This document shows positions 7,156 through 31,284 of a stretch of DNA of 64,000 bases, in pieces. How positions within the stretch are numbered: position 1 is the stretch's first letter; every line of letters begins with the position of its first letter. The DNA is from a virus: IMG/VR virus record IMGVR_UViG_3300042691_021691, positions 1 to 64,000 of that record; one strand, written 5' to 3'. The notes beneath the pieces were generated by a model, which ran no database searches, was not told the origin of the DNA, and worked only from the letters and a program-made list of their open reading frames with translations. The translations under genes were made by a program, and so were the position numbers.

Positions 7156-7157
7156 TA

Positions 7158-7887: not shown

Positions 7888-7896
7888 GAGTAATAT

Positions 7897-8223
7897 ATGG
7901 CTAAGACTGTAGATTTAACAAAGTTACCAGAAGCAAACACTATGGTATCAAAGTTTACGCAAATTTTTAAAGATAATAATGACTGGAATGAAAAAACTAT
8001 TATTGGATTTATGTCATTTACAGTTATGGTTATTGTTGCTGCAATTGATTTAATCACGGGATTGGAAGGAAAAAATTTAGAAATTAAAGATTATATTTAT
8101 AATTCATTTGTGATGTTAACCCTTGGATCATTTGGTATTGCTGGATTAGAGAAATTTTCACCGGTCGCAAAAGCTAAAGCAGAAGCACAATTAAATAATT
8201 CATATGAAGAAATTGTAGAATGA
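7897..8223 (+). CDS. Small 2-TM membrane protein (holin candidate)
   Basis: Two TMs, upstream of lysins. Confidence 0.45.
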   Translation: MAKTVDLTKLPEANTMVSKFTQIFKDNNDWNEKTIIGFMSFTVMVIVAAIDLITGLEGKNLEIKDYIYNSFVMLTLGSFGIAGLEKFSPVAKAKAEAQLNNSYEEIVE

Positions 8224-8834
8224 TGCGGTGGGTTTGGTTATTACTCATTGCAACATCTCTACCCGCACAAGATACGGTGCGAGTAAAACATGCAAATTAT
8301 CAATCTGTATTTTCTAGATCATTGCGATATCCAATTTTAGTAGAATGGTCAACAACTCGGCGGGAGTTACAATGTTCTATACCCGCAAGACGAACTGATA
8401 AATTTTTACCAGACCCATATCTGCAAAAAGATAGTGATATAAACAATGATTATATTAGGTCTGGATTTGATAGAGGGCATATTTCTCCTGCAGGAGATTC
8501 AAGATGTAATCAACGCGATATGGATGAAAGTTTTTATTATACCAATATGGCTCCGCAGTATCCAGGACTAAATCGCGGTCAATGGAAAAATTTAGAAGAG
8601 TGGACTCGTATATTAGCTGTAGAAAATGATTCGCTGAATATTATGGCGGGATGTATTGGTGAGGCAGGAAGAATTAATCGTGTTGCTATACCAACGCATT
8701 GCTGGAAAGTAATTAAAGTAAAAAATGAAGTTCATGCATATGTGTTTCCAAATGTACCACAGAGAACTGCGACATTACAGCAGCATAAGGTTTCGTTAGA
8801 TAGCATAAGAATATTAACTAAATTGAAACTCTAA
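8220..8834 (+). CDS. DNA/RNA non-specific endonuclease (NucA/EndoG type) with signal peptide
   Basis: FDRGHISPAGD, TNMAPQ...LNRGQW..LE motifs. Confidence 0.9.
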   Translation: MMRWVWLLLIATSLPAQDTVRVKHANYQSVFSRSLRYPILVEWSTTRRELQCSIPARRTDKFLPDPYLQKDSDINNDYIRSGFDRGHISPAGDSRCNQRDMDESFYYTNMAPQYPGLNRGQWKNLEEWTRILAVENDSLNIMAGCIGEAGRINRVAIPTHCWKVIKVKNEVHAYVFPNVPQRTATLQQHKVSLDSIRILTKLKL

Positions 8835-8846
8835 CGGAGAATTGTT

Positions 8847-9443
8847 ATGGCGTTTACTAGAGAACAAATAGAAGCGGCAGTAAAAGCCAAAGGTTATGCG
8901 TGGTTTGAAGGGGCGAAAGATTTTGATGTGAATATTGTGGGAGTCAGAAATATGATTCCAGGAAAAAAAGTTACAAATTTATTTGACGACTGGATCACCG
9001 TTTCATATAAAGAAAACGGAGCTTGGAAATTTCATATATGGGCTTGTACCACAGACCCAGGAAATAAAGCAGTAAAAGAATTTCATAATCCGAATGGCGT
9101 AGCCAGATTGATACCCAATCAATATAGAGGATCTCATATGATTGGATTGCATCAAGGAAAATATGAAGCATTGAGACAACAAAAACCTGTCAAGGTTTGG
9201 AGAGATAAAAATAAAGATAGTGTATTCGATGAAACTTCCATCGACGAAGGAATTTTTGGTATAAACATCCATAGATCAAACCCAACAACAGAATCTCAAT
9301 TTGTAGAAAATTGGAGTGAAGGATGTCAGGTATTTAAGCGAGTAAAAGATTTTAATTTATTTATGGAAATTTGTAACAAAGCAAAGGTTATACACGGAAA
9401 CAGTTTTACCTATACGTTGATTACCTCTGGAGATATAAAATAA
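8847..9443 (+). CDS. Putative cell-wall enzyme, L,D-transpeptidase-like catalytic motif
   Basis: GINIH...WSEGCQV. Confidence 0.55.
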   Translation: MAFTREQIEAAVKAKGYAWFEGAKDFDVNIVGVRNMIPGKKVTNLFDDWITVSYKENGAWKFHIWACTTDPGNKAVKEFHNPNGVARLIPNQYRGSHMIGLHQGKYEALRQQKPVKVWRDKNKDSVFDETSIDEGIFGINIHRSNPTTESQFVENWSEGCQVFKRVKDFNLFMEICNKAKVIHGNSFTYTLITSGDIK

Positions 9444-9444
9444 T

Positions 9445-10044
9445 ATGAATATAGATAAATTAAAAGGGCATGTTCCTGATGCCGTATTAGCACAAATTCC
9501 AGAGGTTATGGAAAAATTTCAAATTAATACGCCATTGAGATTATGTCATTTCTTAGCGCAATGTGCCCATGAATCTGGAAACTTCAAGGCAGTTAATGAA
9601 AATTTAAATTATGGTCCAGTGGCATTGATGAGCACTTTTAAGAAATATTTTCCAGATTTACCAAAGGCGGAAGCATACGCAAGAAAGCCGGAAAAAATTG
9701 CAAATCTTGTATACGGTGCTCGTATGGGCAATGGACCCGAAGCAAGTGGTGACGGATGGAAATTTCGTGGAAGAGGGTTTATTCAATTAACGGGCAAAGT
9801 TAATTATGAATCATTTGACAAGGTAGTCTCGGAAAATTTAATAGAAACCCCAGATTTAGTTGCAACTAAATATCCGTTATTATCTGCTGCTTGGTTTTGG
9901 AATTCCAGATCATTAAATACTTTAGCCGATAAAGGTGCAACCGACGCCGATATAACTGCCATAACTAAAAAAGTAAATGGTGGCACTCACGGATTAGATG
10001 ATAGAATTGCTAAATTTAAAAAATTTCACAGTGTAATGAAATAA
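9445..10044 (+). CDS. GH19 chitinase-like endolysin
   Basis: FLAQCAHES, ENLNY, FRGRGFIQLTG, ITKKVNGG. Confidence 0.92.
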   Translation: MNIDKLKGHVPDAVLAQIPEVMEKFQINTPLRLCHFLAQCAHESGNFKAVNENLNYGPVALMSTFKKYFPDLPKAEAYARKPEKIANLVYGARMGNGPEASGDGWKFRGRGFIQLTGKVNYESFDKVVSENLIETPDLVATKYPLLSAAWFWNSRSLNTLADKGATDADITAITKKVNGGTHGLDDRIAKFKKFHSVMK

Positions 10045-10090
10045 AAACTATTGTTTTATTTAATTATTAGATAATTAATTATATACATAC

Positions 10091-10119
10091 TTGACAAAGG
10101 TAATCCGGTCTATTACATT
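10091..10119 (+). promoter_or_regulatory. sigma70-like promoter
   Basis: TTGACA-17nt-TACATT. Confidence 0.65.
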
Positions 10120-10134
10120 TATCTTATGTAGCTT

Positions 10135-10205
10135 GGGTCGGTAAGCTAACGGGAAACTGGGGCCTTTGCAAGGCTCACTTGTGGGTTCGATTCCCACCCG
10201 ATCCA
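10135..10205 (+). tRNA. tRNA-Cys(GCA), divergent copy
   Basis: Anticodon loop TTGCAAG, GGTTCGATTCC. Confidence 0.85.
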
Positions 10206-10210
10206 TAAAT

Positions 10211-10400
10211 ATGTTAGTTGTCAGCCACGGAATCTGGTGGTTAAACCGTAAAAGTAAAAGACCGTGCGGTTCGACTGACATAATCCTCTGTAGTTGAGCC
10301 ATATAAGGCACGGGCACACGAAAGTGAGCAGCTCCACCTGTATGGCGGTCGGGGCGAGTAAGGGCCTTTACTCTTATGGCAACTATAACCGAACCCCATA
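10211..10400 (+). ncRNA. Unassigned structured RNA (two domains)
   Basis: ATGTTAGTTG/CGACTGACAT; TGTAGTTG/CAACTATA; CAC-GAAA-GTG tetraloop; GC-rich and non-coding. Confidence 0.5.
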
Positions 10401-10418
10401 ACGGAAAAGTTGCAATAC

Positions 10419-10492
10419 GGACGGTTAGCTCAGTTGGTTAGAGCAACGCTTTTACACAGCGAAGGTCGGGGGTTCGAATCCCTCACTGTCCA
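10419..10492 (+). tRNA. tRNA-Val(TAC)
   Basis: Cloverleaf, loop TTTACAC. Confidence 0.95.
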
Positions 10493-10516
10493 TACACTTA
10501 ACAAGGAGAAATAGTT

Positions 10517-10861
10517 ATGGCACATGGTAATGTTATTGTTGTAAATACTGTCACCGATGAAATTAAGTCAGTTCCCGTAGGATTCTCGTGGACCGTTTTG
10601 TTTTGGGGATGCTTTCCTGCACTATTTCGTCAAGATTGGAAAAATTTTGGAATTATGGCGGGAACTTTAATAATTTCTACGTTCTTGCTGGTAGCATTCA
10701 TTCCACTCGTAGTATTTGCATTTATTTATAATGATAAGATGTGTTTAAAGGATTTGCTCAATAATGGATGGAAGATTAAGGAATATACTGGAAGTAAAAA
10801 CTTAAATGTAGTTGGGCAATCTGTTGGATATAATCTTGATAAATTTATGTTGAATAAGTAA
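10517..10861 (+). CDS. Membrane protein, DUF2628/HrgC-like
   Basis: VGFSWTVLFWGCFPALFRQDW motif. Confidence 0.65.
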   Translation: MAHGNVIVVNTVTDEIKSVPVGFSWTVLFWGCFPALFRQDWKNFGIMAGTLIISTFLLVAFIPLVVFAFIYNDKMCLKDLLNNGWKIKEYTGSKNLNVVGQSVGYNLDKFMLNK

Positions 10862-11093
10862 TACGGCAGGACGAGTCTTACTCGGTTAGTGGTCGTATGG
10901 AAAGGCATCTGAAAACTGATAACGTATATGGGGTTCACCCTAGGACACAGCTAACAACTCTCCGAGTTGAGGATGAATAACGACGATGTATAGGGGTGGT
11001 CATGACCCAACGATTTTGGGGTGATACACAGATAGGAGTTGCAACTACCTATCACCTGATTGCAGGATAACACCTTTCCCGCTGTATTACTTA
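10855..11093 (+). ncRNA. Unassigned multi-stem structured RNA (~235 nt)
   Basis: 13-bp closing stem TAAGTAATACGGC/GCTGTATTACTTA, GGAAAGG/CCTTTCC, several internal hairpins. Confidence 0.55.
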
Positions 11094-11105
11094 ATATTAA
11101 AATAT

Positions 11106-11675
11106 ATGCCACATAATGTTTCACTCACAACACACAGATACGTTTATGTAGTTTCTGATTTGGTTATTCGCGATGGTAACGAGAATCTAATTCCGTGTGT
11201 ATGGTTTGGTATTGGATCCACACCACAGCGTAGTCTTGCGTGTCATATTTTATTAGAAAATGGTGCGATGTTAGTAGATATTCCACTTCATGCATTACGT
11301 TGGAAACAAACCGATATATCTGTAGCATTATCAGATGTTGTGGCGTGGGATTGTTATGGATGGGATGTGGAAATATATCAGCCAGAATATATAAGTGGAT
11401 TGTCATGTGAAATACTAGATGTTACGCATAAAAAAATTGAAGGGGTTGGAACTTTATGGTTTGCAATCGATTTTATAAATAATGGGTTTAGTGATGCCCC
11501 GCAGCAGCATAAACATTTATGGATAGTTGCACGAAATGATGGAGCCTTAATGTTACTACCGCAGGATAGATTATTAATTCACGAGTCAAGTTTTACAGAA
11601 GTAAACGGCATTCCAAAAATCAAGAGACAAGATAATGTTTGGATTGCCGAAATGATTGATAATGTTATTAAATGA
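11106..11675 (+). CDS. Hypothetical phage protein
   Basis: 189-aa ORF. Confidence 0.7.
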   Translation: MPHNVSLTTHRYVYVVSDLVIRDGNENLIPCVWFGIGSTPQRSLACHILLENGAMLVDIPLHALRWKQTDISVALSDVVAWDCYGWDVEIYQPEYISGLSCEILDVTHKKIEGVGTLWFAIDFINNGFSDAPQQHKHLWIVARNDGALMLLPQDRLLIHESSFTEVNGIPKIKRQDNVWIAEMIDNVIK

Positions 11676-11693
11676 TAATTGTTAATGGTTTTT

Positions 11694-11775
11694 GCTCTTG
11701 TGGTGGAATGGTATACACGGCAGTCTCAAAAACTGCTTCCCATCGGGATTGTGAGTTCGAGTCTCACCGAGAGCA
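11694..11775 (+). tRNA. tRNA-Leu(CAA)
   Basis: Loop CTCAAAA, variable arm. Confidence 0.95.
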
Positions 11776-11797
11776 CTAATTTAGTTATGGAGAATTT

Positions 11798-12367
11798 ATG
11801 AAAAATTTTAGTCAAATAATTACAGAACATTTAAGCGACAAAGTACAAAATGGCTACGGTCCAGTTTATGATAGCATTTTAAAAAACTTACGACATAAGC
11901 CATTAAATATATTGGAAATTGGAATCGGTACCGTGATTCCAGATGCACCGTCAAATATGGCGTGGCAGGGTGGTAATTATAGACCTGGTGCTTCATTACG
12001 AGCATTCAAAGAATATTTTCCAAATGCTATGATTTATGGTGGGGATATTCAAGACGATTGTATGTTTGAAGAGCCAAGAATTAAAACATTTAAGTTTGAT
12101 TCTACTAATCTATCCCAGTGTAATGCTGCATTGATGGATATGACGTTTGATATTATTATTGACGATGGGTTGCACACAACACCGGCGCAATTAAAAACGT
12201 TTAGAAATTTGTGGCATAGAGTTAACGATGGTGGATTCTATTTTATGGAAGATGTTTGGTCACCATTGTATGAAGAATGGCAAACTGCATTTGGTGATAT
12301 TGATGCGGAAAAGTGGGATTATAAGAGTAACAGCGCAAAGTATACATTTATAGTATTTTCTAAGTAA
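11798..12367 (+). CDS. Class I SAM-dependent methyltransferase (sugar O-methyltransferase-like)
   Basis: ILEIGIG, DIIIDDGLH, GGFYFMED. Confidence 0.85.
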   Translation: MKNFSQIITEHLSDKVQNGYGPVYDSILKNLRHKPLNILEIGIGTVIPDAPSNMAWQGGNYRPGASLRAFKEYFPNAMIYGGDIQDDCMFEEPRIKTFKFDSTNLSQCNAALMDMTFDIIIDDGLHTTPAQLKTFRNLWHRVNDGGFYFMEDVWSPLYEEWQTAFGDIDAEKWDYKSNSAKYTFIVFSK

Positions 12368-12368
12368 T

Positions 12369-12439
12369 ACCTCGATGGTGTAATGGAAGCACTACAGTCT
12401 TCGGAACTGTATGTGAGGGTTCAAATCCTTCTCGGGGTA
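12369..12439 (+). tRNA. tRNA-Arg(TCG)
   Basis: ACAGT-CTTCGGA-ACTGT anticodon arm; GGTTCAAATCC. Confidence 0.85.
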
Positions 12440-12529
12440 CTTCTAAATTATAAGGGCGGAAAATTATCCGAGTCCACCCCGCCAGAAGTGTAATGTAGGA
12501 GACTCTCGGTCCTACTATAATTTAGATAT

Positions 12530-12614
12530 GGACAGTTGGCAGAGTGGTCTATTGCAGCAGTCTTGAAAACTGCCGTGCCGCAAGGTACCGAGAGTTCGAA
12601 TCCCTCACTGTCCG
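12530..12614 (+). tRNA. tRNA-Ser(TGA)
   Basis: Loop CTTGAAA, long variable arm. Confidence 0.95.
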
Positions 12615-12618
12615 TTGT

Positions 12619-12691
12619 GCGTCGATAGCTCAATTGGTAGAGCACTGGTCTCCAAAACCAGCGGTTGGGGGTTCGACTCCCTCTCGGCGTG
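12619..12691 (+). tRNA. tRNA-Trp(CCA)
   Basis: Loop CTCCAAA. Confidence 0.95.
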
Positions 12692-12694
12692 TAG

Positions 12695-12774
12695 GCGCTT
12701 ATGGCGGAATTAGCAGACGCACCAGTCTTAGGAACTGGCGGGTAACCGTGGGGGTGCAAGTCCCTCTAAGCGCA
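12695..12774 (+). tRNA. tRNA-Leu(TAG)
   Basis: Loop CTTAGGA, T-loop TGCAAGT. Confidence 0.9.
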
Positions 12775-12779
12775 TACTT

Positions 12780-12852
12780 GCGGGTGTAGCTCAGTTGGTA
12801 GAGCACTTCCTTGCCAAGGAAGATGTCACGGGTTCGACCCCCGTTACCCGCT
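12780..12852 (+). tRNA. tRNA-Gly(GCC)
   Basis: Loop TTGCCAA. Confidence 0.95.
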
Positions 12853-12865
12853 CTTTAATAAATTT

Positions 12866-13252
12866 ATGAATGATAAATCAATACAAAATATAAGAAGTAA
12901 TGCATTAACGTATGGGACCACGCCAAATGCTCCTGCCTCAATATATCCAGAAAATATAGATGAGTGGAAAGCTAATGTATCTCCTACATTTAAGCATTAT
13001 TTCAAAGAAAGATATGATGAAATAGTAAAGTTGTATGAACGGTTAGCAGAAGAATATGCAATAAATAAAATGTTATACGAATGCCAAATTTCGTTTCAAC
13101 CAAAAATTGGTGAAACTTATTATTTGTATAATACGCCAAGCAAAGGTGCATTCATTTCGCTAGTTTCTCCTGAGTCTGCTTTCTGGGGTGGTTTTGTAGG
13201 ATCGTTTAAATTGAATTCGCAGTATGCGTGGGAAAAGGTAACGTCACTGTAG
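12866..13252 (+). CDS. DUF2452-like protein
   Basis: FQPKIGETYYLY...FISLVSP..W pattern; stop codon inside tRNA-Phe. Confidence 0.65.
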   Translation: MNDKSIQNIRSNALTYGTTPNAPASIYPENIDEWKANVSPTFKHYFKERYDEIVKLYERLAEEYAINKMLYECQISFQPKIGETYYLYNTPSKGAFISLVSPESAFWGGFVGSFKLNSQYAWEKVTSL

Positions 13253-13315
13253 CTCAGTTGGTAGAGCGCCAGCCTGAAGAGCTGGGCGTCAGGGGTTCGA
13301 CTCCCTTCGGTGACA
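13243..13315 (+). tRNA. tRNA-Phe(GAA)
   Basis: Loop CTGAAGA. Confidence 0.95.
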
Positions 13316-13339
13316 TTTTATTTAAATATTGAGGTTATT

Positions 13340-13699
13340 ATGCGGTTTCTTACCAGAAAATTAGTTCAGCCAGGAGATTTAAACGCAGGTGGAACTTTGT
13401 TTGGAGGACGATGCTTAGCATGGATTGACGAAGAAGCGGCAATTTATGCAAGTATTGAAACTAGACATCGACGGGTAGTTACAAAAAGCATATCAGAAAT
13501 AAATTTTATTGCTCCTGCATTTCAAGGAGATATTGTTGAAATTGGAATTGGTTTAAAAACTATAGGTAAAACATCAATTACATTAGAAGTGCAGGTTAGA
13601 GACTTGACAACTCACAAAGTTATTGTTAATATCGATGAGATGGTGTTTGTTTGTATAGATGAAGACGGAAGGCCTGTTAAACATTCATTAAGCAAATGA
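13340..13699 (+). CDS. Acyl-CoA thioesterase (hotdog fold)
   Basis: DLNAGGTLFGGRCLAWIDEEAA; start at ATG 13340 after GAGG. Confidence 0.9.
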   Translation: MRFLTRKLVQPGDLNAGGTLFGGRCLAWIDEEAAIYASIETRHRRVVTKSISEINFIAPAFQGDIVEIGIGLKTIGKTSITLEVQVRDLTTHKVIVNIDEMVFVCIDEDGRPVKHSLSK

Positions 13700-13700
13700 T

Positions 13701-13835
13701 ATGGAAATTTATCTTATATACGGATTAATTGTGGCATTTTGTGTGTTTATTGCAATTCAATGGACAAGAGGTATTGTTTATATGGATAGTAATCATTCTG
13801 ACTATAAAGGCGAAGATTTTTTAGGTGATATATGA
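13701..13835 (+). CDS. Small membrane protein (44 aa)
   Basis: MEIYLIYGLIVAFCVFIAIQWTRGIVYMDSNHSDYKGEDFLGDI. Confidence 0.6.
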   Translation: MEIYLIYGLIVAFCVFIAIQWTRGIVYMDSNHSDYKGEDFLGDI

Positions 13836-13842
13836 ACGTTCG

Positions 13843-14002
13843 TGAATTTATCGCACATCCCTGATGTGTTTGCCCGTATTGTCCTCTGTAACGTGCTATA
13901 GGTTTCGACCTAGTTACATGGTAACGGGGTAGGCATTGTCCGGACATGACCTACCACGACCAGACCTGTCGGATTGAAGATGTGCGCGGAATGCAAAATT
14001 CA
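13843..14002 (+). ncRNA. Unassigned structured RNA (~160 nt)
   Basis: TGAATTT/AAATTCA and CGCACATC/GATGTGCG closing stems; TGTTTGCCC/GGGTAGGCA; TAGGT-TTCG-ACCTA. Confidence 0.5.
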
Positions 14003-14016
14003 TCTATGGTCAATAT

Positions 14017-14089
14017 TCCCAGATAGCTCAGTCGGTAGAGCAGGTGACTGTTAATCACCGGGTCGGGGGTTCGAGTCCCTCTCTGGGAG
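14017..14089 (+). tRNA. tRNA-Asn(GTT)
   Basis: Loop CTGTTAA. Confidence 0.95.
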
Positions 14090-14110
14090 CTTATTTAATA
14101 CAGAGGTAAT

Positions 14111-14386
14111 ATGAAACATATTTTATATGCAAAACCAAAAACATTAACAGAAACAGAAGAACATATTATAGTAAAGAGAAAATGGTGGGCGGTTATTCTA
14201 TTAGTAATTGGTGGAATAATGCTAGCAGCCAAGTTACCAGTTCCTTTATTTATTCCGTATATCTTCTTTTTCTTTGGTCATGGTGGAATGCTACATAGTT
14301 TTTGGAATAAACATGACTATCCAATGGTTATTGTAAATCTGATTTGGTTGTTGATTGACATTATAGGCACAATTAGGTGGTTTTAA
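14111..14386 (+). CDS. Small multi-TM membrane protein
   Basis: Three hydrophobic helices. Confidence 0.65.
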   Translation: MKHILYAKPKTLTETEEHIIVKRKWWAVILLVIGGIMLAAKLPVPLFIPYIFFFFGHGGMLHSFWNKHDYPMVIVNLIWLLIDIIGTIRWF

Positions 14387-14769
14387 TGATAGAGATTACC
14401 AAATTAATATTAGATACCGCACAGGGAATATTTAATGCTATACAAGGAAAGAAAAGTCAAAGAAAAAATGAGATATCTTCTTTCTTTTTGGCAATTTCAA
14501 GAGAACTTGATATCGTAGTCGAAAAGCTTAAAAATGGAGAAGTTCCACATGGATCTTGCGCTACCATTCAGCATTTTGCTACGGAGTTTCCTACTAAATT
14601 AGAAGGTGTATTAGATAAGGTAAAAGCACATAAATATGGAAGTGCATTGCATCAAGCACACAATGTAGAAATGTTACACATAACGGTTAAAGAGAATCCA
14701 GCATGCTTGGCGGATTTAGAAAAGGCATCAGGATTATTTCGTGGGGCTGGATTAACAGTACTGTTATAA
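14386..14769 (+). CDS. Hypothetical protein
   Basis: ATG overlaps the previous stop. Confidence 0.65.
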   Translation: MIEITKLILDTAQGIFNAIQGKKSQRKNEISSFFLAISRELDIVVEKLKNGEVPHGSCATIQHFATEFPTKLEGVLDKVKAHKYGSALHQAHNVEMLHITVKENPACLADLEKASGLFRGAGLTVLL

Positions 14770-14772
14770 GGT

Positions 14773-15309
14773 ATGAATTATATGACTTGGAATATTGACA
14801 GACTAAAACGTGCTGGGTTTTTACTTACCGAGAGCAATATTTCAAATGCTCAAGAGATAGAAGAGTTTTTAAGCAACTGTGAAAGCACTGTCGCAACGGA
14901 AGATAAATTACATACGATAACTGAAAAGTTTTCGATAGCAGAATTACAACCACAAATTAGTAAGATGCATCGGTCAGATTACCTGTTTACTAGCATAATA
15001 CAAAATATGTATGCAACGGTATCTGCACTTCCGTGTGTTTATGTTCAACGCGATATCGTGCCAACTAAATTAAGAAATTTTAAAGCAATTCTACATTTGG
15101 ATCGGTATATCAATGACTCATACGATGAAGCGACGGTGAAAGGAACTATAGAACTTTTATCGGAATATTTAGGTTATGAATTAAAATTATTTATTGGTCA
15201 CGAATGTGTTTTAAATAAAACTCCAATATATATAGATTCTCCACTGATACCTACTGTCGGTGAAGATAACATTATTACGTTTAGTTTTACGTATTCTACA
15301 CCAGTATAA
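14773..15309 (+). CDS. Hypothetical protein
   Basis: 178-aa ORF in operon. Confidence 0.6.
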   Translation: MNYMTWNIDRLKRAGFLLTESNISNAQEIEEFLSNCESTVATEDKLHTITEKFSIAELQPQISKMHRSDYLFTSIIQNMYATVSALPCVYVQRDIVPTKLRNFKAILHLDRYINDSYDEATVKGTIELLSEYLGYELKLFIGHECVLNKTPIYIDSPLIPTVGEDNIITFSFTYSTPV

Positions 15310-15311
15310 AT

Positions 15312-15385
15312 GGGGTGGTGGCGCAATTGGTTAGCGCACCGGACTGTCACTCCGGAGGTTGCGGGTTCGATCCCCGTCCATCCCG
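15312..15385 (+). tRNA. tRNA-Asp(GTC)
   Basis: Loop CTGTCAC. Confidence 0.95.
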
Positions 15386-15410
15386 TAGTTAATTGAGTCA
15401 GGAATTAGTT

Positions 15411-15842
15411 ATGATGAGAGAATGTGGAAACTGTACAAAATGTTGCGAAGGTTGGCTAGTTGCAAATATTTTTGAACATAAAATATATAAAGACAATCCT
15501 TGCCCTTATATTGATAGTGATAACTGTAAGTGTTCTATTTATAATAAAAAGCCATTACTATGTTCCGATTTTAAATGTGCTTGGTTAAAAGAAGAACATG
15601 TATTTCCATTATGGATGAAACCAAATTTAATAAATCAAATTATTAAAAAGCATGTAACAAATGAATATATTTATTATGAGATAGTAGAAGCAGGATCAAC
15701 CATAGATACCGAAATATTAAATTGGTTTATGGAACAAGCAGCTAAGGGAAGGATGAATATAAAATATAGTATAAACGGATTACCACATTACGTTGGTGAT
15801 AGTTATTTTTGCAAATCCAGACCTATGATTGGCAATAGCTAA
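15411..15842 (+). CDS. YkgJ-like Cys-cluster (Zn/Fe-S) protein
   Basis: CGNCTKCC...CPY....CKCSIY..KP..C..F.C. Confidence 0.75.
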   Translation: MMRECGNCTKCCEGWLVANIFEHKIYKDNPCPYIDSDNCKCSIYNKKPLLCSDFKCAWLKEEHVFPLWMKPNLINQIIKKHVTNEYIYYEIVEAGSTIDTEILNWFMEQAAKGRMNIKYSINGLPHYVGDSYFCKSRPMIGNS

Positions 15843-15845
15843 TTC

Positions 15846-15919
15846 GGCAGAGTAGCTCAGTTGGTAAGAGCGCATGACTCATAATCATGAGGTCGAGGGT
15901 TCAACTCCCTCCTTTGCTA
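15846..15919 (+). tRNA. tRNA-Met(CAT), elongator type
   Basis: CATGA-CTCATAA-TCATG arm; GGC start. Confidence 0.9.
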
Positions 15920-15939
15920 TAATTTAAACAGGGAGTGTA

Positions 15940-16506
15940 ATGCACAATTTAATAGTAATTGGACATCCGGACAAAAATAGCTTTTGTTATAATGGAATAT
16001 TTAAAACCATTATCGAAGAATTGAAGCGTAACAACGAAGAAATTGAAATAATTGATTTATATAAAGATGATTTGTCAATTAAGAAGAAAGAGGTTATCAA
16101 GCATTATCAAGAACTTGTAACGTGGTCGGATAGAATTTATATCATCTCACCTGTGTGGTGGTTTAGATGTACCCCGTTAATGGAAGAGTTTTTTGATGTG
16201 GTATTTACTCCAAAATTTGCATATGAGTTTAAACCTCTCATTCCAAAATACGGATATCCTAAGCCATTGCTATCAGATAAAAAAGTTAGAACTTATCTAA
16301 CGCACGGTGCACCTGCTTTACCTGTATACTTATTATATTTTAATGCGGTGAAACTTCGATTGTCTCTTGGTGTATATTCATTTGTATTTGGGTGGTTTAA
16401 AGCTAAAACTAGACAATTTTGGAGCGTACCGTTCGTTGACAATTCGACAAGAATGCGTTATCTTACAAAAGTTAAACAGGACATTAATAAAGATTTGAAG
16501 TTATGA
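15940..16506 (+). CDS. NAD(P)H-dependent oxidoreductase (flavodoxin-2 fold)
   Basis: IGHPDKNSF...PVWWF..TPLMEEFFDVV. Confidence 0.85.
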   Translation: MHNLIVIGHPDKNSFCYNGIFKTIIEELKRNNEEIEIIDLYKDDLSIKKKEVIKHYQELVTWSDRIYIISPVWWFRCTPLMEEFFDVVFTPKFAYEFKPLIPKYGYPKPLLSDKKVRTYLTHGAPALPVYLLYFNAVKLRLSLGVYSFVFGWFKAKTRQFWSVPFVDNSTRMRYLTKVKQDINKDLKL

Positions 16507-16907
16507 AAGATAAAGTTGGTGTAATTGCAGGAAACTTTGATGTTATACATCCTGGGTATATGAAGATGTTTGCAGAATGTAAAGCAAACTGTGATATCTT
16601 TGAAGTATTTTTACACGAAGATCCCAGTATTGGACGACCAGAAAAAATAAAACCCATTCTTTCTGTAGAAGAGCGAATGGAAATACTATACGGTATTAGG
16701 TATATTGATAGCGTAGTTCCATATAAGACTGAACAAGATTTATATAAACTACTAAAAGTTTCTGGAATACATATACGGTTTTTAGGCGATGATTATCTTA
16801 ACAAACCGTTTACAGGTGATGATTTAGGTATTCCTATATATTGGATTAAGCGTGATCATGGATGGTCAACTACAAAGTTTAAAAATTTAATTGCACAATC
16901 AGTATAA
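16503..16907 (+). CDS. Cytidylyltransferase (TagD/G3P-CT-like)
   Basis: GNFDVIHPGY, GDDY, WSTT motifs. Confidence 0.85.
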   Translation: MKDKVGVIAGNFDVIHPGYMKMFAECKANCDIFEVFLHEDPSIGRPEKIKPILSVEERMEILYGIRYIDSVVPYKTEQDLYKLLKVSGIHIRFLGDDYLNKPFTGDDLGIPIYWIKRDHGWSTTKFKNLIAQSV

Positions 16908-16912
16908 AATAC

Positions 16913-16997
16913 GGGAGTGCCGCAAAGTTGGAGGTTTGCACCGGACTGTAAATCCGTTGGTTCATAGCCCTAGTAGGTTCGAATCCTTCCACTACCA
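16913..16997 (+). tRNA. tRNA-Tyr(GTA)
   Basis: Loop CTGTAAA, variable arm; some stem mismatches. Confidence 0.85.
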
Positions 16998-17000
16998 TTT

Positions 17001-17073
17001 GCACCCATAGCTCAACTGGCAGAGCATTCGCCTCTTAAGCGACAGGTTGTAGGATCGTCCCCTACTGGGTGCA
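17001..17073 (+). tRNA. tRNA-Lys(CTT)
   Basis: Loop CTCTTAA; T-loop ATCGTCC. Confidence 0.9.
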
Positions 17074-17076
17074 TCT

Positions 17077-17151
17077 AGTCTCTTAGCTCAGTCTGGTTAG
17101 AGCGTCCGTCTGATACACGGAAGGTCCGGGGTTCAACTCCCTGAGGGACTA
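17077..17151 (+). tRNA. tRNA-Ile(GAT)
   Basis: Loop CTGATAC. Confidence 0.92.
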
Positions 17152-17171
17152 TATAATTATTAGGAGAATAT

Positions 17172-17279
17172 ATGGCAGAAGTATTGACAAAGTGTAAAGA
17201 CTGTGGTAATATACAAAAGGGTGCTGCACCGCCTTGCGATAGATGTCAAGGAATGAGATTAGAGATGTTTAAAAAGTAG
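17172..17279 (+). CDS. Small zinc-ribbon peptide (35 aa)
   Basis: AGGAG RBS; MAEVLTKCKDCGNIQKGAAPPCDRCQGMRLEMFKK. Confidence 0.7.
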   Translation: MAEVLTKCKDCGNIQKGAAPPCDRCQGMRLEMFKK

Positions 17280-17286
17280 TATTTTT

Positions 17287-17361
17287 CGGAGAATAGCTCA
17301 GTCCGGCTAGAGCACTCGCTTTGGGAGCGAGGGGTCGCAGGTTCGAATCCTGTTTCTCCGA
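17287..17361 (+). tRNA. tRNA-Pro(TGG)
   Basis: Loop TTTGGGA. Confidence 0.95.
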
Positions 17362-17368
17362 CTTATAT

Positions 17369-17443
17369 ACCCTCGTAGCTCAGTTGGATTAGAGCAACAG
17401 CCTTCTAAGCTGTGGGTCAGAGGTTCGAATCCTCTCGGGGGTG
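17369..17443 (+). tRNA. tRNA-Arg(TCT)
   Basis: Loop CTTCTAA. Confidence 0.95.
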
Positions 17444-17455
17444 CTAAGTTTTTTC

Positions 17456-17530
17456 GGATGGGTGGCAGAGAGGTCCAATGCAAGAGTCTGCAAAACTCTA
17501 AAGCCGCCGGTTCGAATCCGGCCTCATCCT
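17456..17530 (+). tRNA. tRNA-Cys(GCA)
   Basis: Loop CTGCAAA, U73. Confidence 0.92.
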
Positions 17531-17553
17531 TTATTATTAGCTAGGAGATATTT

Positions 17554-17739
17554 ATGTGGGTGTTAAAATTAAATGAAACGGCACAGGGATATTTTGACGA
17601 TGTAACTGAGGCTAAGGTTCATGCAGAAAAGATGTTTGGAATGTTGGAATTTAATACTATGGTGGGAGATAAATATAGTGCATTAATTCCAAATAGAGGG
17701 AATACAACGGTTACAATTGAATTTGAAGAAGATTGCTAG
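17554..17739 (+). CDS. Hypothetical protein
   Basis: AGGAG RBS; TAG stop inside tRNA-Thr. Confidence 0.65.
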   Translation: MWVLKLNETAQGYFDDVTEAKVHAEKMFGMLEFNTMVGDKYSALIPNRGNTTVTIEFEEDC

Positions 17740-17807
17740 CATAGCTCAGTTGGTAGAGCAGCTGATTTGTAATCAGCAGGTCGTCGGTTCAAACCCGTCT
17801 GCTAGCT
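17735..17807 (+). tRNA. tRNA-Thr(TGT)
   Basis: Loop TTTGTAA. Confidence 0.95.
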
Positions 17808-17812
17808 CTAGT

Positions 17813-17890
17813 GGTGGTCGTAGCTCAATCGGTTAGAGCATCGGATTGTGGTTCCGAGGGTTGCGAGTTCGATTCTCGTCGATCACCCCA
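17813..17890 (+). tRNA. tRNA-His(GTG)
   Basis: G-1, loop TTGTGGT, C73, encoded CCA. Confidence 0.95.
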
Positions 17891-17921
17891 GTGAAATTAT
17901 TTAAACTAAAAAGAGGTTATT

Positions 17922-18176
17922 ATGTTATCTAATATTAGTCCAAACGACAAGCTTAAATTAGAAAACGCATTGAAGGATTATAGCGTTTCTCTTACACGAG
18001 TAGAGGCGGAACGAGATCTTCAAAAGAATATTAAAAATGATATTTGCGAAGAATTGCAATTAAATAAAAAGGTGTTTGTGAAGTTGGCAAACACATATCA
18101 TAAACAAAACTTTTCGGAAGAAGTGCAGTTGCATGAGGAATTCGAAAATCTTTATGAATCCGTAACCACCTCTTGA
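17922..18176 (+). CDS. T4 DsbA-like dsDNA-binding protein
   Basis: LNKKVFVKLANTYHKQNFSEE...FENLYE pattern, 84 aa. Confidence 0.7.
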   Translation: MLSNISPNDKLKLENALKDYSVSLTRVEAERDLQKNIKNDICEELQLNKKVFVKLANTYHKQNFSEEVQLHEEFENLYESVTTS

Positions 18177-18201
18177 CAGTTTAATAACTTCAGATTATAT
18201 T
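18173..18201 (+). promoter_or_regulatory. sigma70-like promoter
   Basis: TTGACA-17nt-TATATT. Confidence 0.7.
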
Positions 18202-18206
18202 TATAA

Positions 18207-18338
18207 AATTGCGATAAGTTCTAGTCATTCCATATCGTCTATAGCGAGTTGCTGGGATGGCGTTTGAAGAACAACAAAGGATGCATACGCAGGTTGAAAT
18301 ACCATAAGAGCGGATTTGCCCGAACCGCTATCGCAATT
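18207..18338 (+). ncRNA. Unassigned structured RNA (~130 nt)
   Basis: Perfect 10-bp closing stem AATTGCGATA/TATCGCAATT directly after a promoter; internal hairpins. Confidence 0.6.
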
Positions 18339-18342
18339 ATAT

Positions 18343-18414
18343 GCCGCTTTCGTCTATCGGTTAGGACATAGCCCTTTCAAGGCTAGAAGGCGAGTTCGAT
18401 TCTCGCAAGCGGTA
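18343..18414 (+). tRNA. tRNA-Glu(TTC)
   Basis: Loop CTTTCAA; TCGTCTA D-arm. Confidence 0.92.
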
Positions 18415-18417
18415 CTA

Positions 18418-18553
18418 TGGGTAAGGCTTCACATACGGTGAAAATGAATTTGGATGCAAGATAACAGACAAACTCCTTGTGAGACATTCGACGGAATGAG
18501 TGCTGCAACTTGCTAGAACCATTAGTAATTAGTAACGCTGAAGTGTCTGCCCA
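18418..18553 (+). ncRNA. Unassigned structured RNA (~135 nt)
   Basis: TGGGTA..GCTTCA/TGAAGT..TGCCCA closing stem; GCAAG/CTTGC; CATTC-GACG-GAATG. Confidence 0.45.
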
Positions 18554-18577
18554 CCATCATATTGATAGGAGTATGCA

Positions 18578-18670
18578 ATGCCACATCCAAAAAAGTGCGG
18601 AAAGGGTCGGCGTAAAGTTGGCTCAAAGAAGCGCAGAAATCGTTGGAAAAATAGAAAGCGTAATCATTAA
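18578..18670 (+). CDS. 30-aa highly basic peptide (ribosome/RNA-binding candidate)
   Basis: AGGAG RBS; MPHPKKCGKGRRKVGSKKRRNRWKNRKRNH. Confidence 0.7.
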   Translation: MPHPKKCGKGRRKVGSKKRRNRWKNRKRNH

Positions 18671-18683
18671 TCCCGTCTGCTTC

Positions 18684-18844
18684 ATAGAGGCTGCTGACGT
18701 TAAACAACGAACTCTATCGTTAGTCTATCGGCGCGTGGATAGAAGCTTGGCAACGTGTCGGATGTTGCAAAAGGATAGAGGGAGCGGGTCTAGACCGTGC
18801 GACATCCTTGGGTATCTGGAAAATACCTCAATTGTCTCCCTTCT
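18684..18844 (+). ncRNA. Pseudoknotted structured RNA
   Basis: GGATGTTGCA/TGCGACATCC crossing AGAGGGAG/CTCCCTTCT; upstream hairpins. Confidence 0.45.
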
Positions 18845-18846
18845 AC

Positions 18847-18917
18847 TGCCCTCTCGTATAAAGGCAATACAGCTGACTTTGGATCAGCGAATCGTGGTTC
18901 GATTCCATGGAGGGCAA
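18847..18917 (+). tRNA. tRNA-Gln(TTG)
   Basis: Loop CTTTGGA, U1-A72. Confidence 0.92.
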
Positions 18918-18953
18918 CTGCAGTAATCATTTAAAATTCAAAAGAGGTATACA

Positions 18954-19115
18954 ATGTTTAAATTTTTAGCAATTCTATCGTTAGCAACCGTTACCGCATG
19001 CACAACCACAGACAAGCCTGATACTGTTCAAGGTGGTGGCGGTGGAGTTACCGATACCACCAGCGGTGGAGATAAGGCAGTAATCAAGGCAGATTCAACC
19101 GTTAAGATGCACTAA
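18954..19115 (+). CDS. Small lipoprotein (53 aa)
   Basis: MFKFLAILSLATVTAC lipobox; GAGG RBS. Confidence 0.7.
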   Translation: MFKFLAILSLATVTACTTTDKPDTVQGGGGGVTDTTSGGDKAVIKADSTVKMH

Positions 19116-19120
19116 AATTT

Positions 19121-19147
19121 ATGTGGTTGTGCTTGCAACCACATCTT
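19121..19147 (+). terminator. Hairpin (terminator or processing stem)
   Basis: ATGTGGTTGT-GCTT-GCAACCACAT. Confidence 0.45.
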
Positions 19148-19218
19148 GCGGTTCTAGTGTAATAGATAGCACATCTGGTTTCCAACTAGAAAGTCCGGTG
19201 CAACTCCGAGGAACCGCT
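19148..19218 (+). tRNA. tRNA-Gly(TCC), atypical second copy
   Basis: GCGGTTC/GAACCGC acceptor, loop TTTCCAA, no D-loop GG, TGC in T-loop. Confidence 0.75.
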
Positions 19219-19232
19219 CTTAGTTATTTGAT

Positions 19233-19551
19233 AATATGCAGAAGATGATACGTGACTGAATGCCTCGTTCTTCGGGGGCACGGTATTTCCTAGAGCGCAC
19301 TGTTAGGGAAGTCTAAGTAGGGTTGTGGAATTATAAGTCAGGAAGGAATCATGGGAGGTGTAGCGCCATGAGGAGCGCCAACTGGTCGGTAGCTTACATT
19401 CGCGAGAAGACGGCTGGTATGTGGGTAAATTCCCACCTTGGGTCCAAGTGACAACTATACGAGTAGCTACCGTATAGCCAAGTGGATGAATAATAAAACT
19501 ACAACGGAAAGGTATGGGATTCGCATTCCCATCGTATCATCTTCTCATATT
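19233..19551 (+). ncRNA. Unassigned large structured RNA (~320 nt)
   Basis: 13-bp perfect stem AGAAGATGATACG/CGTATCATCTTCT plus AATATG/CATATT; at least 6 internal hairpins; T-arm-like hairpin at the 3' end. Confidence 0.65.
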
Positions 19552-19558
19552 GTATTGC

Positions 19559-19630
19559 CGCAGGGTAGAGCAACGGTAGCTCGCTTGGCTCATAACCAAG
19601 AGGTAGTGGGTTCGACTCCCACCTCTGCCA
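19559..19630 (+). tRNA. tRNA-Met(CAT), initiator-like
   Basis: C1 mismatch, CGCAGGGTAGAGCA start, loop CTCATAA. Confidence 0.85.
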
Positions 19631-26707: not shown

Positions 26708-27043
26708 GGGCCTGACATGGTTTCGACGGGGTGTAGAAGATTAAACTTTGTATCTCGTTTGGTAAGACGAGTAAAACAGACCAAAATATTTAACTGGCAA
26801 TAATCAATTAGCCCTCGCTGCGTAAGCAGCTTGACAAATTAGTCCAACCCACGTAAGATTAATTTGTTCATTAACGTGGTATAGTCTTAGGGAGGGACCG
26901 TAGCTAAGATGATACACAACAGTCCTATGCCAATCTTACGTTTGTTAGTTGTCGAGAGATTGGCGAAGCAATACAACTGACTATATACATAAACATTTAA
27001 TACGAAGCTATCTCGGACGTGGGTTCGAATCCCACCAGGTCCA
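26708..27043 (+). ncRNA. ssrA: tmRNA; tag peptide (A)GNNQLALAA
   Basis: GGGCCTGACATGGTTTCGAC 5' end; GGTTCGAATCCCACCAGGTCCA 3' end with G3-U70; tag ORF 26796-26825. Confidence 0.95.
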
Positions 27044-27067
27044 CTTAAATTTGAGGTTACATATAAA

Positions 27068-28280: not shown

Positions 28281-28808
28281 ATGGGAGCAGAAACTAAAAA
28301 ATGCATAGTATTGAATTCTACATACGAACCTCTTACGATAGTTACCGTTAAGAGAGCTATTTCTTTAATAGTTCAAGGAAAAGCAATACTAGTCGAAGAA
28401 TATAAAAATGTAAAAGTTAGAAGCAGTAATCAATCTTTTTCTGCACCTCTGACAATTGCATTGAAATATTATATTAATAGCAGATTGGTATTTAAACGAC
28501 CGGCTCCGTTGAATAACAGAAATCTGAGCGTGAGAGACAATAATACATGTCAGTATTGTGGCAGAACTAAGTCACAATTAACCGCAAAAGAAAAGATGAC
28601 ACGAGATCATATTATCCCGAAAGATAAAGGCGGGATAGATGATTGGTTAAATGTTGCACTATCATGTGATACATGTAATAATAAAAAGGGCAACAAATAT
28701 ATGAGTGAAAAAAATATGAAATTGCTAAAAGAACCCACGGTCCCAACGGTATTTGAATTGTGGGCTAGACAAGCAAAAATATCTCCAACCAGTATACTAC
28801 AAGACTAA
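28281..28808 (+). CDS. HNH endonuclease (McrA-like)
   Basis: VLNSTYEPL, RDNNTCQYCG, TRDHIIP..KGG...W.N...C..CN..K. Confidence 0.9.
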   Translation: MGAETKKCIVLNSTYEPLTIVTVKRAISLIVQGKAILVEEYKNVKVRSSNQSFSAPLTIALKYYINSRLVFKRPAPLNNRNLSVRDNNTCQYCGRTKSQLTAKEKMTRDHIIPKDKGGIDDWLNVALSCDTCNNKKGNKYMSEKNMKLLKEPTVPTVFELWARQAKISPTSILQD

Positions 28809-29535: not shown

Positions 29536-30027
29536 ATGACTAAAAATTCTTTATTGGTACGTCCGAGAAGTTGGGTGGGATCGGTTTTTAATGAACGTGA
29601 TTCGTTTGTTAATTCATTTGATCAAATTTTCGATGAAATGCTTAAGACACAGTTCCCAGAAGCATTTACCGAAATTGGCGCAAATCCAATTGGTAGAGCA
29701 GCGTATCCAAAGGTTAATGTAGTAGCAAAAGAAAATTCATTGGTTATTGAGGCGGAGCTAGCAGGACTGAAAAAGGAAGAAATTGATCTAGATGTTAAGG
29801 ATACGATTCTAACAATTTCAGGAAAAGCTACTTCCACCGAAGCGGCAGAAAATACGGTTTATGTAATTAGAGAATTAAAGCGATCTGGTTTTAGTCGTGC
29901 ATTTGTGCTTGGTAAACAATTTGATACTTCTAAAATTAGTGCAACATTTGAAAACGGGTTACTGACAATTGAAATTCCAAGATTTATTAAGGAAGACAGT
30001 AACCCACAAAAGGTTACGATTAAGTAA
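29536..30027 (+). CDS. Hsp20/alpha-crystallin small heat shock protein
   Basis: YPKVNV...AELAGL...FSRAF...ATFENGLLTI. Confidence 0.92.
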   Translation: MTKNSLLVRPRSWVGSVFNERDSFVNSFDQIFDEMLKTQFPEAFTEIGANPIGRAAYPKVNVVAKENSLVIEAELAGLKKEEIDLDVKDTILTISGKATSTEAAENTVYVIRELKRSGFSRAFVLGKQFDTSKISATFENGLLTIEIPRFIKEDSNPQKVTIK

Positions 30028-30046
30028 AAACCTTAAATAACTAGGA

Positions 30047-30147
30047 GGGCTAACGTAATGATTCGTAGTTTTAAATCAGCAGTAGTTAATCACAAAAACT
30101 ATAACCGATATAACTAGGAGGTGATCCACATCGGTTATATTTAGCCC
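30047..30147 (+). ncRNA. Hairpin RNA displaying a complement of the 16S rRNA 3' end (contains 19-codon ORF 30058-30117)
   Basis: TATAACCGAT/ATCGGTTATA stem around AGGAGGTGATCCA; outer GGGCTAA/TTAGCCC stem. Confidence 0.6.
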
Positions 30148-30170
30148 AAAACGTTAACCATGGAGATACT

Positions 30171-30205
30171 AACGGGGTCATTGAGAACCACTCTTTGACC
30201 CCGTT
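30171..30205 (+). terminator. Terminator-like hairpin
   Basis: AACGGGGTCA/TGACCCCGTT. Confidence 0.6.
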
Positions 30206-30228: not shown

Positions 30229-31284
30229 ATGATAACACTACATAGATTGATAGTATTTACGGCATTTTGTATAGCAGCGGCAGCAGCATATTTTTCAGTT
30301 ACAGGAATAGGAAAATTATTTGCAGGTGCAGCTATGTCGGCAATGGTTATGGCAAGTGCGTTAGAATTAGGAAAGCTGGTATCGGTTTCATTCTTATATC
30401 GATATTGGAAAATTATACCTCGTGCATTAAAAACTTATATGACTGCTGGCAGTATAGTTTTAATAGCTATAACATCCGCTGGTATATATGGATATCTTTC
30501 ATCTGCGTATGCTACAGTTGCCGCTACGCCATTAAAAATGAACGCAGATATACAAATTTTAGATGCACAGGCAAAAACTTTAGATGAAGAAATTCAAAGA
30601 AAGACAAATAGATTAGATCAAATTATTTCTCTTCGTGGACAGCAAGAATCTAGAATTGATAATTTGATTGCAAAAAGTACAACTGGTTCTAATACTACAA
30701 TTAGAACGGCGCAAAATTCATTGCGAGAATTAGATAGAACAGCATCGGCGTTACAACAAGAAATAAACAAAACATCCGCTCAACGTGATAGCCTACGGGC
30801 AAAAAGTCTAACAACAGGTGTTGAAATTAATACTAATTCCGACATAGGAACTTTTATGTATATTGCAAATGCAATAGGAGTTCCATTAGATACTGTAGTT
30901 AAATGGTTTATATTAGTTATTGTCTTGGTGTTTGATCCTTTGTCTATTAGCTTAGTATTAGCATATAATTTTCTAAAAATGCAAGAAACTAAAAGTGTGG
31001 AATCCAAGCCTATAGAAGATGAAAAGGAATTGCCGTTGTATACACCGGAGCCAATAGCAGAAAAAATAGAATTGGTGGAAGCAGAAGAACTTACACCAGA
31101 CATACCTGCTGTATTAGATTTGCCAACCGAAGAAGTAATTAATAAAATTGATTATAATCAAATATATAATGATCCAATGCCATATTATATGAATTCAAAA
31201 TATGATTGGAACAAAGATCAACGATGGGAAACCGACCCATCTGCTATAGCATTCAAAAGATATTTAGATAACAAAACCATATAA
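30229..31284 (+). CDS. Multi-TM plus coiled-coil membrane protein
   Basis: FSVTGIGKLFAGA, LELGKLV, VFDPL motifs. Confidence 0.75.
   Translation: MITLHRLIVFTAFCIAAAAAYFSVTGIGKLFAGAAMSAMVMASALELGKLVSVSFLYRYWKIIPRALKTYMTAGSIVLIAITSAGIYGYLSSAYATVAATPLKMNADIQILDAQAKTLDEEIQRKTNRLDQIISLRGQQESRIDNLIAKSTTGSNTTIRTAQNSLRELDRTASALQQEINKTSAQRDSLRAKSLTTGVEINTNSDIGTFMYIANAIGVPLDTVVKWFILVIVLVFDPLSISLVLAYNFLKMQETKSVESKPIEDEKELPLYTPEPIAEKIELVEAEELTPDIPAVLDLPTEEVINKIDYNQIYNDPMPYYMNSKYDWNKDQRWETDPSAIAFKRYLDNKTI

Follow-up and report, generated by a model that had tools for sequence, protein, structure and literature searches.

The 64,000-nucleotide stretch of DNA analysed here (the window) covers positions 1 to 64,000 of the IMG/VR virus record IMGVR_UViG_3300042691_021691, and near its middle it carries a 13-nucleotide (nt) complement of the 3' tail of 16S ribosomal RNA (rRNA). 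This motif is placed in the loop of a hairpin, directly at the stop codon of a very short open reading frame (ORF), here called the micro-ORF, and it is followed by no start codon at initiation distance. Comparison of related phage sequences indicates that the loop probably pairs with the anti-Shine-Dalgarno (anti-SD) sequence of 16S rRNA. A tentative reading of the whole module, given a little less than an even chance, is that it is a start-less Shine-Dalgarno (SD) sequence that would anchor a 30S ribosomal subunit in cis, as a transcript stabiliser or as a ribosome hand-over point. The element represents a new RNA family, absent from Rfam. The source of the window is a large uncultured T4-like phage; the record is 92.8 kb long, is estimated to be 47% complete and encodes a T4-type major capsid protein. 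The 13-nt motif, the perfect stem, the micro-ORF with its AGGAGG, a duplicated ATAACTAGGAGG (at 30037 and again at 30110) and a terminator-type hairpin had been pointed out in an earlier description made from the window alone (the original prediction), and all of them are read in the sequence. The element has the following features.

30043..30048, + strand: SD of the micro-ORF, AGGAGG, 9 nt before the ATG; (C)AGGAGGT in relatives.
ATG at 30058 to TAG at 30115-30117, + strand: micro-ORF of 19 codons with the peptide MIRSFKSAVVNHKNYNRYN; the TAG overlaps the extended SD.
30100-30109 / 30130-30139, + strand: hairpin with a perfect 10-bp stem, TATAACCGAT / ATCGGTTATA, and a 20-nt loop, seen in the sequence, in folds and in the consensus structure.
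30116..30128, + strand: extended start-less SD AGGAGGTGATCCA, the 13-nt complement of the 16S rRNA 3' tail, unpaired within the hairpin loop.
30162..30166, + strand: GGAGA within ATGGAGAT, a second SD-like motif that has no consistent start codon and is followed after about 5 nt by the terminator hairpin.
30171..30205, + strand: terminator-type hairpin AACGGGGTCA/TGACCCCGTT, the stem of which is G+C-rich and 10 bp long; its T-tract has 5-7 T in relatives and is weak in the window.

The evidence for pairing with 16S rRNA comes from relatives of the element, which were gathered through homologues of the protein encoded downstream; these gave 19 and then 80 loci from viral contigs, and a pattern scan added a few more. 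The resulting set of 40 distinct sequence variants from T4-like phage contigs was anchored on the motif, and each position was compared with the complement of the 16S 3' end. The sequence AGGAGGUGAUC covers 11 positions opposite 16S positions 1530-1540, and 438 of the 440 cells in this block can pair. The changes that do occur keep a G.U pair each time, with A replaced by G in 18 cells and C replaced by U in 4 cells plus 15 at the next position. Transitions that break the pairing are nearly absent (G to A in 0 of 280 G cells and one U to C), and because the genome is A+T-rich (37% G+C), the missing G to A changes run counter to mutation pressure. Just outside the 11-position stretch a mismatch is found in 31-34 of the 40 sequences, and the limits of conservation coincide with the free 3' tail of 16S rRNA. 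Contiguous pairing with the tail has a median length of 13 nt and a range of 11-15 nt, with one outlier. These substitutions are what would be predicted for a fixed RNA partner that has U or G opposite the variable positions, and this selection pattern fits the pairing with the 16S 3' end on which the original prediction was built.

The same loop could instead be a protein site, read by a CsrA- or RegB-like regulator or nuclease, from the phage or the host, that binds RNA at GGA or GGAG in loops, in which case the likeness to an SD would be incidental. Four GGA-containing SD-like motifs stand in series (the SD of the micro-ORF, the loop, the GGAGA and the SD of the next gene), and the invariant TAAC/GTTA stem core together with a second hairpin with the same arms before hsp20 in some relatives hints at sequence-specific recognition. 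However, the conservation runs through GGUGAUC and stops exactly at the end of the free 16S tail, and the tolerated changes are wobble-compatible, which is a better fit to RNA-RNA pairing. No match to the RegB or RegA family above threshold was found in five records, which are fragments. A protein site of this kind is considered distinctly improbable. A CsrA/RsmA-type GGA-loop site in particular was rejected because the conservation spans AGGAGGUGAUC and follows the 16S tail, and because the loop is 18-28 nt and not short.

The motif is also exceptional within its own genome. It is the sole match of at least 10 nt to the complement of the 16S tail in the entire record, and in five related records (91-148 kb) GGRGGTGATC is found exactly once per record, always at the element. 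The predicted duplex between the motif and a generic anti-SD tail is -24.3 kcal/mol; the exact 16S tail of the host may differ from the generic one. The predicted anti-SD duplexes upstream of 85 ORFs of at least 100 amino acids (aa) have a mean of -5.2 with a standard deviation of 2.75, and the best ribosome-binding site (RBS) of a gene reaches -11.8 kcal/mol; the statement that the pairing goes beyond that of a normal RBS is borne out by this comparison. AGGAGG stands upstream of 0 of these 85 ORFs, yet it is present upstream of the micro-ORF, the SD of which is among the strongest in these phage genomes. The phage genes themselves use SD sequences, with GGAG, GAGG and AGGA enriched about 10 times over the background in a peak that spans positions -13 to -8 relative to the start codon, and these gene SDs are short, typically GGAGA. 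No RNA target of the loop was found within the phage, where the best + strand match has 2 mismatches.

The hairpin that displays the motif has the properties of an RNA structure. A stem of 9-11 bp with a loop of 18-28 nt is found in about 33 of the 40 variants, and the 10-bp stem of the window is recovered in 56-nt and 170-nt folds of the window as well as in the comparative consensus. When 32 sequences are aligned, 4 of the 11 stem pairs show changes in both partners, with A-U replaced by G-C in 6 sequences and C-G replaced by U-A in 9. The resulting covariation score is reached by 0 of 500 shuffles, so that the covariation check suggested with the original prediction comes out in favour of the stem. 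When the partner column is slid by 1-3 positions, stem pairing falls from 86% to 24-39%. Recurrent G.U pairs are seen in the stem (ATAGCC/GGTTAT, CGTAAC/GTTATG and GTAGCT/AGTTAC), and because G.U pairs are A.C mismatches on the other strand, the hairpin acts as + strand RNA. The G.U pairs bear on whether the arms, which are perfect inverted repeats, form a DNA-level palindrome such as an operator or a recombination site. The same arm sequence is found upstream of hsp20 in a subset of relatives, as might be expected of such a site, but the G.U pairs are valid on the + strand alone, the conservation of the loop is strand-specific and matches the rRNA, and arm-only matches elsewhere in viral contigs have unrelated loops and are about as numerous as expected by chance. 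A role as a DNA palindrome is extremely improbable.

The core of the stem, UAACCG/CGGUUA (30101-30106 / 30133-30138), resembles the base of 16S helix 45 in what we take to be the E. coli 16S sequence, a resemblance that was noticed post hoc and may be due to chance. The 3' arm of the hairpin is likewise complementary to what is presumably GUAACCG in the E. coli 16S sequence, which is also a post hoc observation and is given little weight. The helix 45 segment is paired in mature subunits, and the second subfamily of the element keeps only GUAAC of this stem core.

A start codon in reach of the motif is missing almost throughout. In the window there is no ATG, GTG or TTG within 20 nt past the motif, and in 39 of the 40 variants none of these codons lies 3-13 nt downstream, in agreement with the claim that no start codon is found at initiation distance. 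In the core family an ATG is present at +15, where it forms the closing part of the stem and covaries with its partner (CAT/ATG with CGT/ACG). This ATG opens an ORF of 6-13 codons; neither the window nor the second subfamily has it. It is a point in favour of the motif being a real or vestigial RBS, one that serves a tiny or non-canonical ORF (from the ATG at +15, from an ATC, or by recoding or bypassing from the micro-ORF) or one that was left over when a gene was deleted. The TAAC..AGGAGGT context is like that of the RBS of the micro-ORF, which suggests an old duplication. The distribution of the ATG and its covariation as a stem pair argue against such an RBS; in addition, none of the downstream frames stays open across relatives, the spacer indels are not multiples of three and break the frame, and a vestige would not remain so conserved. 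An RBS, live or vestigial, is very unlikely. A hidden ORF and read-through were rejected because the frames are not conserved. A bypass of the T4 gene 60 type was also tried and rejected, since a matching codon is found only in some variants (GAT in the core family and ATC in L102) and the later frames are interrupted and contain indels.

The feature that is conserved next to the motif is the end of the micro-ORF, the final codons of which double as the 5' arm of the hairpin. GGNGG follows the stop codon at a distance of 0-3 nt, or shares 1 nt with it, in 37 of the 38 variants with a callable micro-ORF, and this position is kept despite differing frames, peptides and stop codons (TAA, TAG and TGA). 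In most variants the micro-ORF encodes a CxC-rich peptide of 16-26 aa of the MCSC...C..C type that ends in a conserved (I/V)-T-D, and it contains 5-9 Cys codons; this peptide, encoded for example at L002:2786-2863, L100:2326-2388 and L102:2294-2359, resembles a metallothionein. Other peptides are found in the window and in L096, L113/L114, L118, L123 and L130. The number of Cys codons is none or one in the window, L096, L113/L114, L118 and L130, the copy in the window being without Cys, and the micro-ORF of L113/L114 consists of MLR-stop only. Since the peptides differ among variants, it is termination at this spot and not the peptide that is conserved throughout. The coupling of the motif to the micro-ORF, as proposed in the original prediction, stands with respect to the position of the stop; the peptide is not arbitrary, being CxC-rich in most relatives and lost in the window. 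Pfam has no family for the micro-peptide. The CxC-rich micro-peptide is conserved, yet it is short enough that gene callers would miss it.

In termination-reinitiation tethers, which include bacterial coupling and the viral termination upstream ribosome-binding sites (TURBS), an rRNA-complementary motif by the stop codon retains the post-termination subunit. The element is like these tethers in having an rRNA-complementary motif beside a stop codon. The tethers differ in having a restart codon at or next to the stop, whereas none is within reach here.

Downstream of the hairpin, the spacer and the terminator hairpin are conserved features as well. The sequence (A/T)TGGAGA or GGAGAT is kept across subfamilies before the terminator, mostly about 8-20 nt away from it in relatives, and the GGAGA-type motif (30160-30167 in the window) resembles the RBS of the downstream gene. 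The start position near it varies (ATG, TTG, GTG, ATA and CTA), and some variants have a tiny ORF (MKI) that ends at the base of the terminator or an ORF that runs through the terminator. The terminator hairpin covaries, with several pairs changing on both sides in relatives. It ends about 12-23 nt before the next start codon, which is too tight for a promoter, and the distance from the SD to the terminator is 45-60 nt.

This arrangement is that of a classic leader, with a leader ORF followed by an intrinsic-type hairpin directly upstream of the next gene, and it raises the possibility of attenuation or antitermination. Ribosomes from the micro-ORF and the SD would move to the GGAGA/ATG and mask the 5' arm of the terminator, so that the supply of ribosomes would govern read-through into the next gene. 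Even in loci without hsp20 the module is found ahead of the downstream gene, and in many variants small ORFs that start at or after the GGAGA run into or through the terminator stem. The element is like the trp, his and pyrBI attenuators in having a short leader ORF, RNA hairpins and an intrinsic terminator just before a gene. Unlike in these attenuators, no competing antiterminator was found, and the start-less extended SD has no counterpart there. No conserved alternative (antiterminator) pairing was found in the consensus fold, where the terminator itself forms. The terminator hairpin also still forms in 24 of 24 variants that were folded with the 5' arm and the SD blocked. The start codon near the GGAGA is not conserved, the SD is too distant from the terminator for direct masking, and Cys codons are absent in several members, including the window. 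Regulation of this kind is improbable, and a switch by alternative structures, as judged from the predicted folds, is unlikely.

The 40 variants in which the element is conserved extend to loci where the neighbouring protein is only about 40% identical. A covariance model, R1, was built from 27 of the 40 variants and gives a single strong match, with E-values of 1e-16 to 3e-5, ahead of the downstream gene in each of 55 loci out of the 80. The window scores 58 bits against this model (E = 7e-12), and in the more divergent members the motif is present with weak covariance-model scores. Matches to Rfam were at chance level only (E of at least 0.5) and far under the gathering scores. DNA searches of a collection of cultured phages gave no match to the element, and in Microcystis, Flavobacterium and Pelagibacter phages, where the downstream gene has homologues, no module of this kind precedes them. 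In the neighbourhood of the element every gene of the window is on the + strand, and the two genes that flank the module are the following.

29536..30027, + strand: hsp20 gene (Pfam HSP20 at 2e-20), the usual upstream neighbour of the module.
30229..31284, + strand: downstream gene, encoding a 351-aa membrane / coiled-coil protein with no family assigned; its start lies about 23 nt past the terminator-type hairpin.

The usual order in relatives is hsp20, a strong SD with the micro-ORF, the SD hairpin, a spacer with GGAGA, the terminator hairpin with its T-tract, and an RBS with the downstream gene. The module was expected to be associated with hsp20, and it does usually follow that gene: an hsp20 homologue precedes it in most loci, the loci without one being L097, L107, L118, L120 and L130, where the module is still found before the downstream gene. 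In L104 and L122 an extra gene is inserted behind the terminator and the module remains after hsp20. Some junctions between hsp20 and the downstream gene have no module (L127-L129, L135 and L138). A second hairpin with the same arms, TATAACCG / CGGTTATA, and an unrelated loop lies about 660 nt upstream of the element, just before hsp20, in a subset of relatives (L072:1685-1729, L066:1692-1739, L122:892-939 and others); it is not found in the window. A repeated regulatory cassette was ruled out because the arm motif occurs only 1-2 times per genome. Further genes of the window include an HNH endonuclease gene at 28281-28808, two genes upstream of hsp20, and, downstream, genes for UvdE, a family-2 glycosyltransferase and a GMP-reductase-like protein.

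The phage encodes several components of the translation machinery. A cluster of 30 transfer RNA (tRNA) genes at 2790-19630 of the window, all on the + strand, covers nearly all amino acids and includes a tRNA-Cys at 17456-17530. A phage transfer-messenger RNA (tmRNA) with the tag peptide GNNQLALAA is encoded at 26708-27044, 3 kb upstream of the element; when the tag was scanned against bacterial genomes, matches were found in mixed phyla and no host was singled out. A gene for ribosomal protein bS21 lies outside the window (G000:C1:75912-76067, with an ORF at L139:1486-1704). This gene has an ordinary GGAGA RBS and is located about 1.5 kb before the T4-type major capsid gene and 45 kb from the element. 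The protein bS21 is encoded in 5 of 5 large related records with the element, and the fragments of four relatives are without it, in a comparison of co-occurrence made on relatives that lack the element, whose records are only 16-40% complete and so say little. In the protein atlas and the PDB the phage bS21 is nearest to spirochaete-type proteins (its closest solved relative is a spirochaete bS21) and is not Flavobacterium-like. Phage bS21 proteins have been proposed to redirect host ribosomes (PMC9723584; PMC7162821).

These genes bear on whether the hairpin acts in trans. The RNA from the hairpin to the terminator, as part of the messenger RNA (mRNA) or as a processed 3' fragment, might sequester or sense 30S subunits with a free anti-SD alongside the phage bS21. 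The hairpin would then be a dedicated trap or sensor within a phage programme (bS21, about 30 tRNAs and tmRNA) that sorts, parks or reprogrammes host 30S subunits. The very strong predicted pairing, the small RNA-like architecture of a stable hairpin with a terminator, the presence of bS21 in all five large records and the 30 tRNAs and tmRNA of the window are in line with this. A precedent is found in Flavobacteriales, where the extended SD of rpsU is read by bS21-less ribosomes with a free anti-SD, which results in autoregulation of bS21 (PMC9976891). The phage element shares with that of rpsU an SD of exceptional length that has no equal elsewhere in its genome, and these phages encode bS21 as well; the difference is that the SD of rpsU drives translation from a start codon behind it, whereas the phage element has no start codon. 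A Bacteroidia host is not supported because the phage genes use SD sequences and the phage bS21 is closest to the spirochaete type. A trap in trans is also difficult to reconcile with the single copy per genome and with the conserved place beside the stop of the micro-ORF, which points to action in cis. No own promoter was detected for the element, as no sigma-70-like candidate stands out nearby. Such a trap or sensor is unlikely; if true, it would give the extended-SD / bS21 circuit of Flavobacteria a viral counterpart, in which the micro-ORF serves as a loading and clearing device. It is close to the decoy for host translation shut-off suggested in the original prediction, a suggestion that is unlikely to hold. 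The element is present in one copy per genome with no promoter of its own detected, and since the phage genes depend on their own short SDs, a general anti-SD blocker would be costly and would also hurt the phage.

The favoured reading is one of anchoring in cis. We infer from the comparative pattern that pairing between the loop and the anti-SD keeps a 30S subunit attached to the transcript of the element, the subunit being either free or freshly terminated on the micro-ORF. Translation of the micro-ORF would melt the 5' arm of the hairpin at each passage, and the 30S subunit would be parked with about 50-60 nt between it and a strong intrinsic-type hairpin, behind which the next gene follows. 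With less certainty, the parked subunit may be a roadblock that stabilises the transcript, or it may serve the weak SD-like site and the downstream gene by loading or handing over ribosomes. The protection of mRNA or the capture of post-termination ribosomes, both of which had been named in the original prediction, are plausible.

The closest known case is STAB-SD of Bacillus thuringiensis cry3A, a start-less SD that is thought to bind the 30S subunit, to block the progress of RNases and so to stabilise the mRNA (PMC4113751). Like STAB-SD and related polypurine stabilisers, the phage element is complementary to the 16S 3' end and directs no initiation. STAB-SD lies about 125 nt before the next start codon, and the distance is similar here (PMC4113751). 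There are also differences. The match is 11-13 nt in the phage element and 9 nt in STAB-SD, and it is presented in a conserved hairpin loop. In addition, the phage element abuts the stop of a translated micro-ORF, precedes a terminator hairpin and is borne by T4-like phages.

Several observations are weak points of the hairpin as described or weigh against anchoring in cis as formulated above. When 201 nt of the window are folded by themselves, the minimum-energy structure does not contain the 10-bp stem. The outer GGGCTAA/TTAGCCC stem that had been drawn around the hairpin can be read in the window, but relatives do not conserve it. The SD is predicted to be partly paired in the members that diverge most (L113/L114, L118 and L123); an outer 9-bp stem replaces the usual one in L113:2356-2423 and L114:2042-2109, and the SD of these two is predicted to pair with GGUUACUUC downstream, so that it would be masked rather than displayed. 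In one distant relative, at L126:1790-1910, the arrangement differs, and GGGGGTGATC and a 3'-arm-like sequence are found upstream of hsp20 inside a 35-aa ORF that reads through them. Simple anchoring leaves both the invariant TAAC/GTTA core of the stem and the conservation of the GGAGA unexplained. A 12-bp helix within a hairpin loop may be a poor fit on the platform of the 30S subunit, and the loop may need a ribosome on the micro-ORF to open the stem first. Finally, a strong terminator-type hairpin separates the next gene from the element, which could therefore act as a 5' stabiliser of that gene only with read-through or processing.

To our knowledge, few cases of start-less SDs that hold ribosomes without initiation are known, and these are mainly from Gram-positive bacteria. 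A start-less SD is now seen to be conserved across a broad group of environmental T4-like phages, in which it is unique in each genome. Such clean comparative support for the pairing of an mRNA with the 16S tail outside initiation sites is unusual. Together with bS21, a near-complete set of tRNAs and a tmRNA, the element offers a testable handle on how these phages manage the ribosomes of their hosts.

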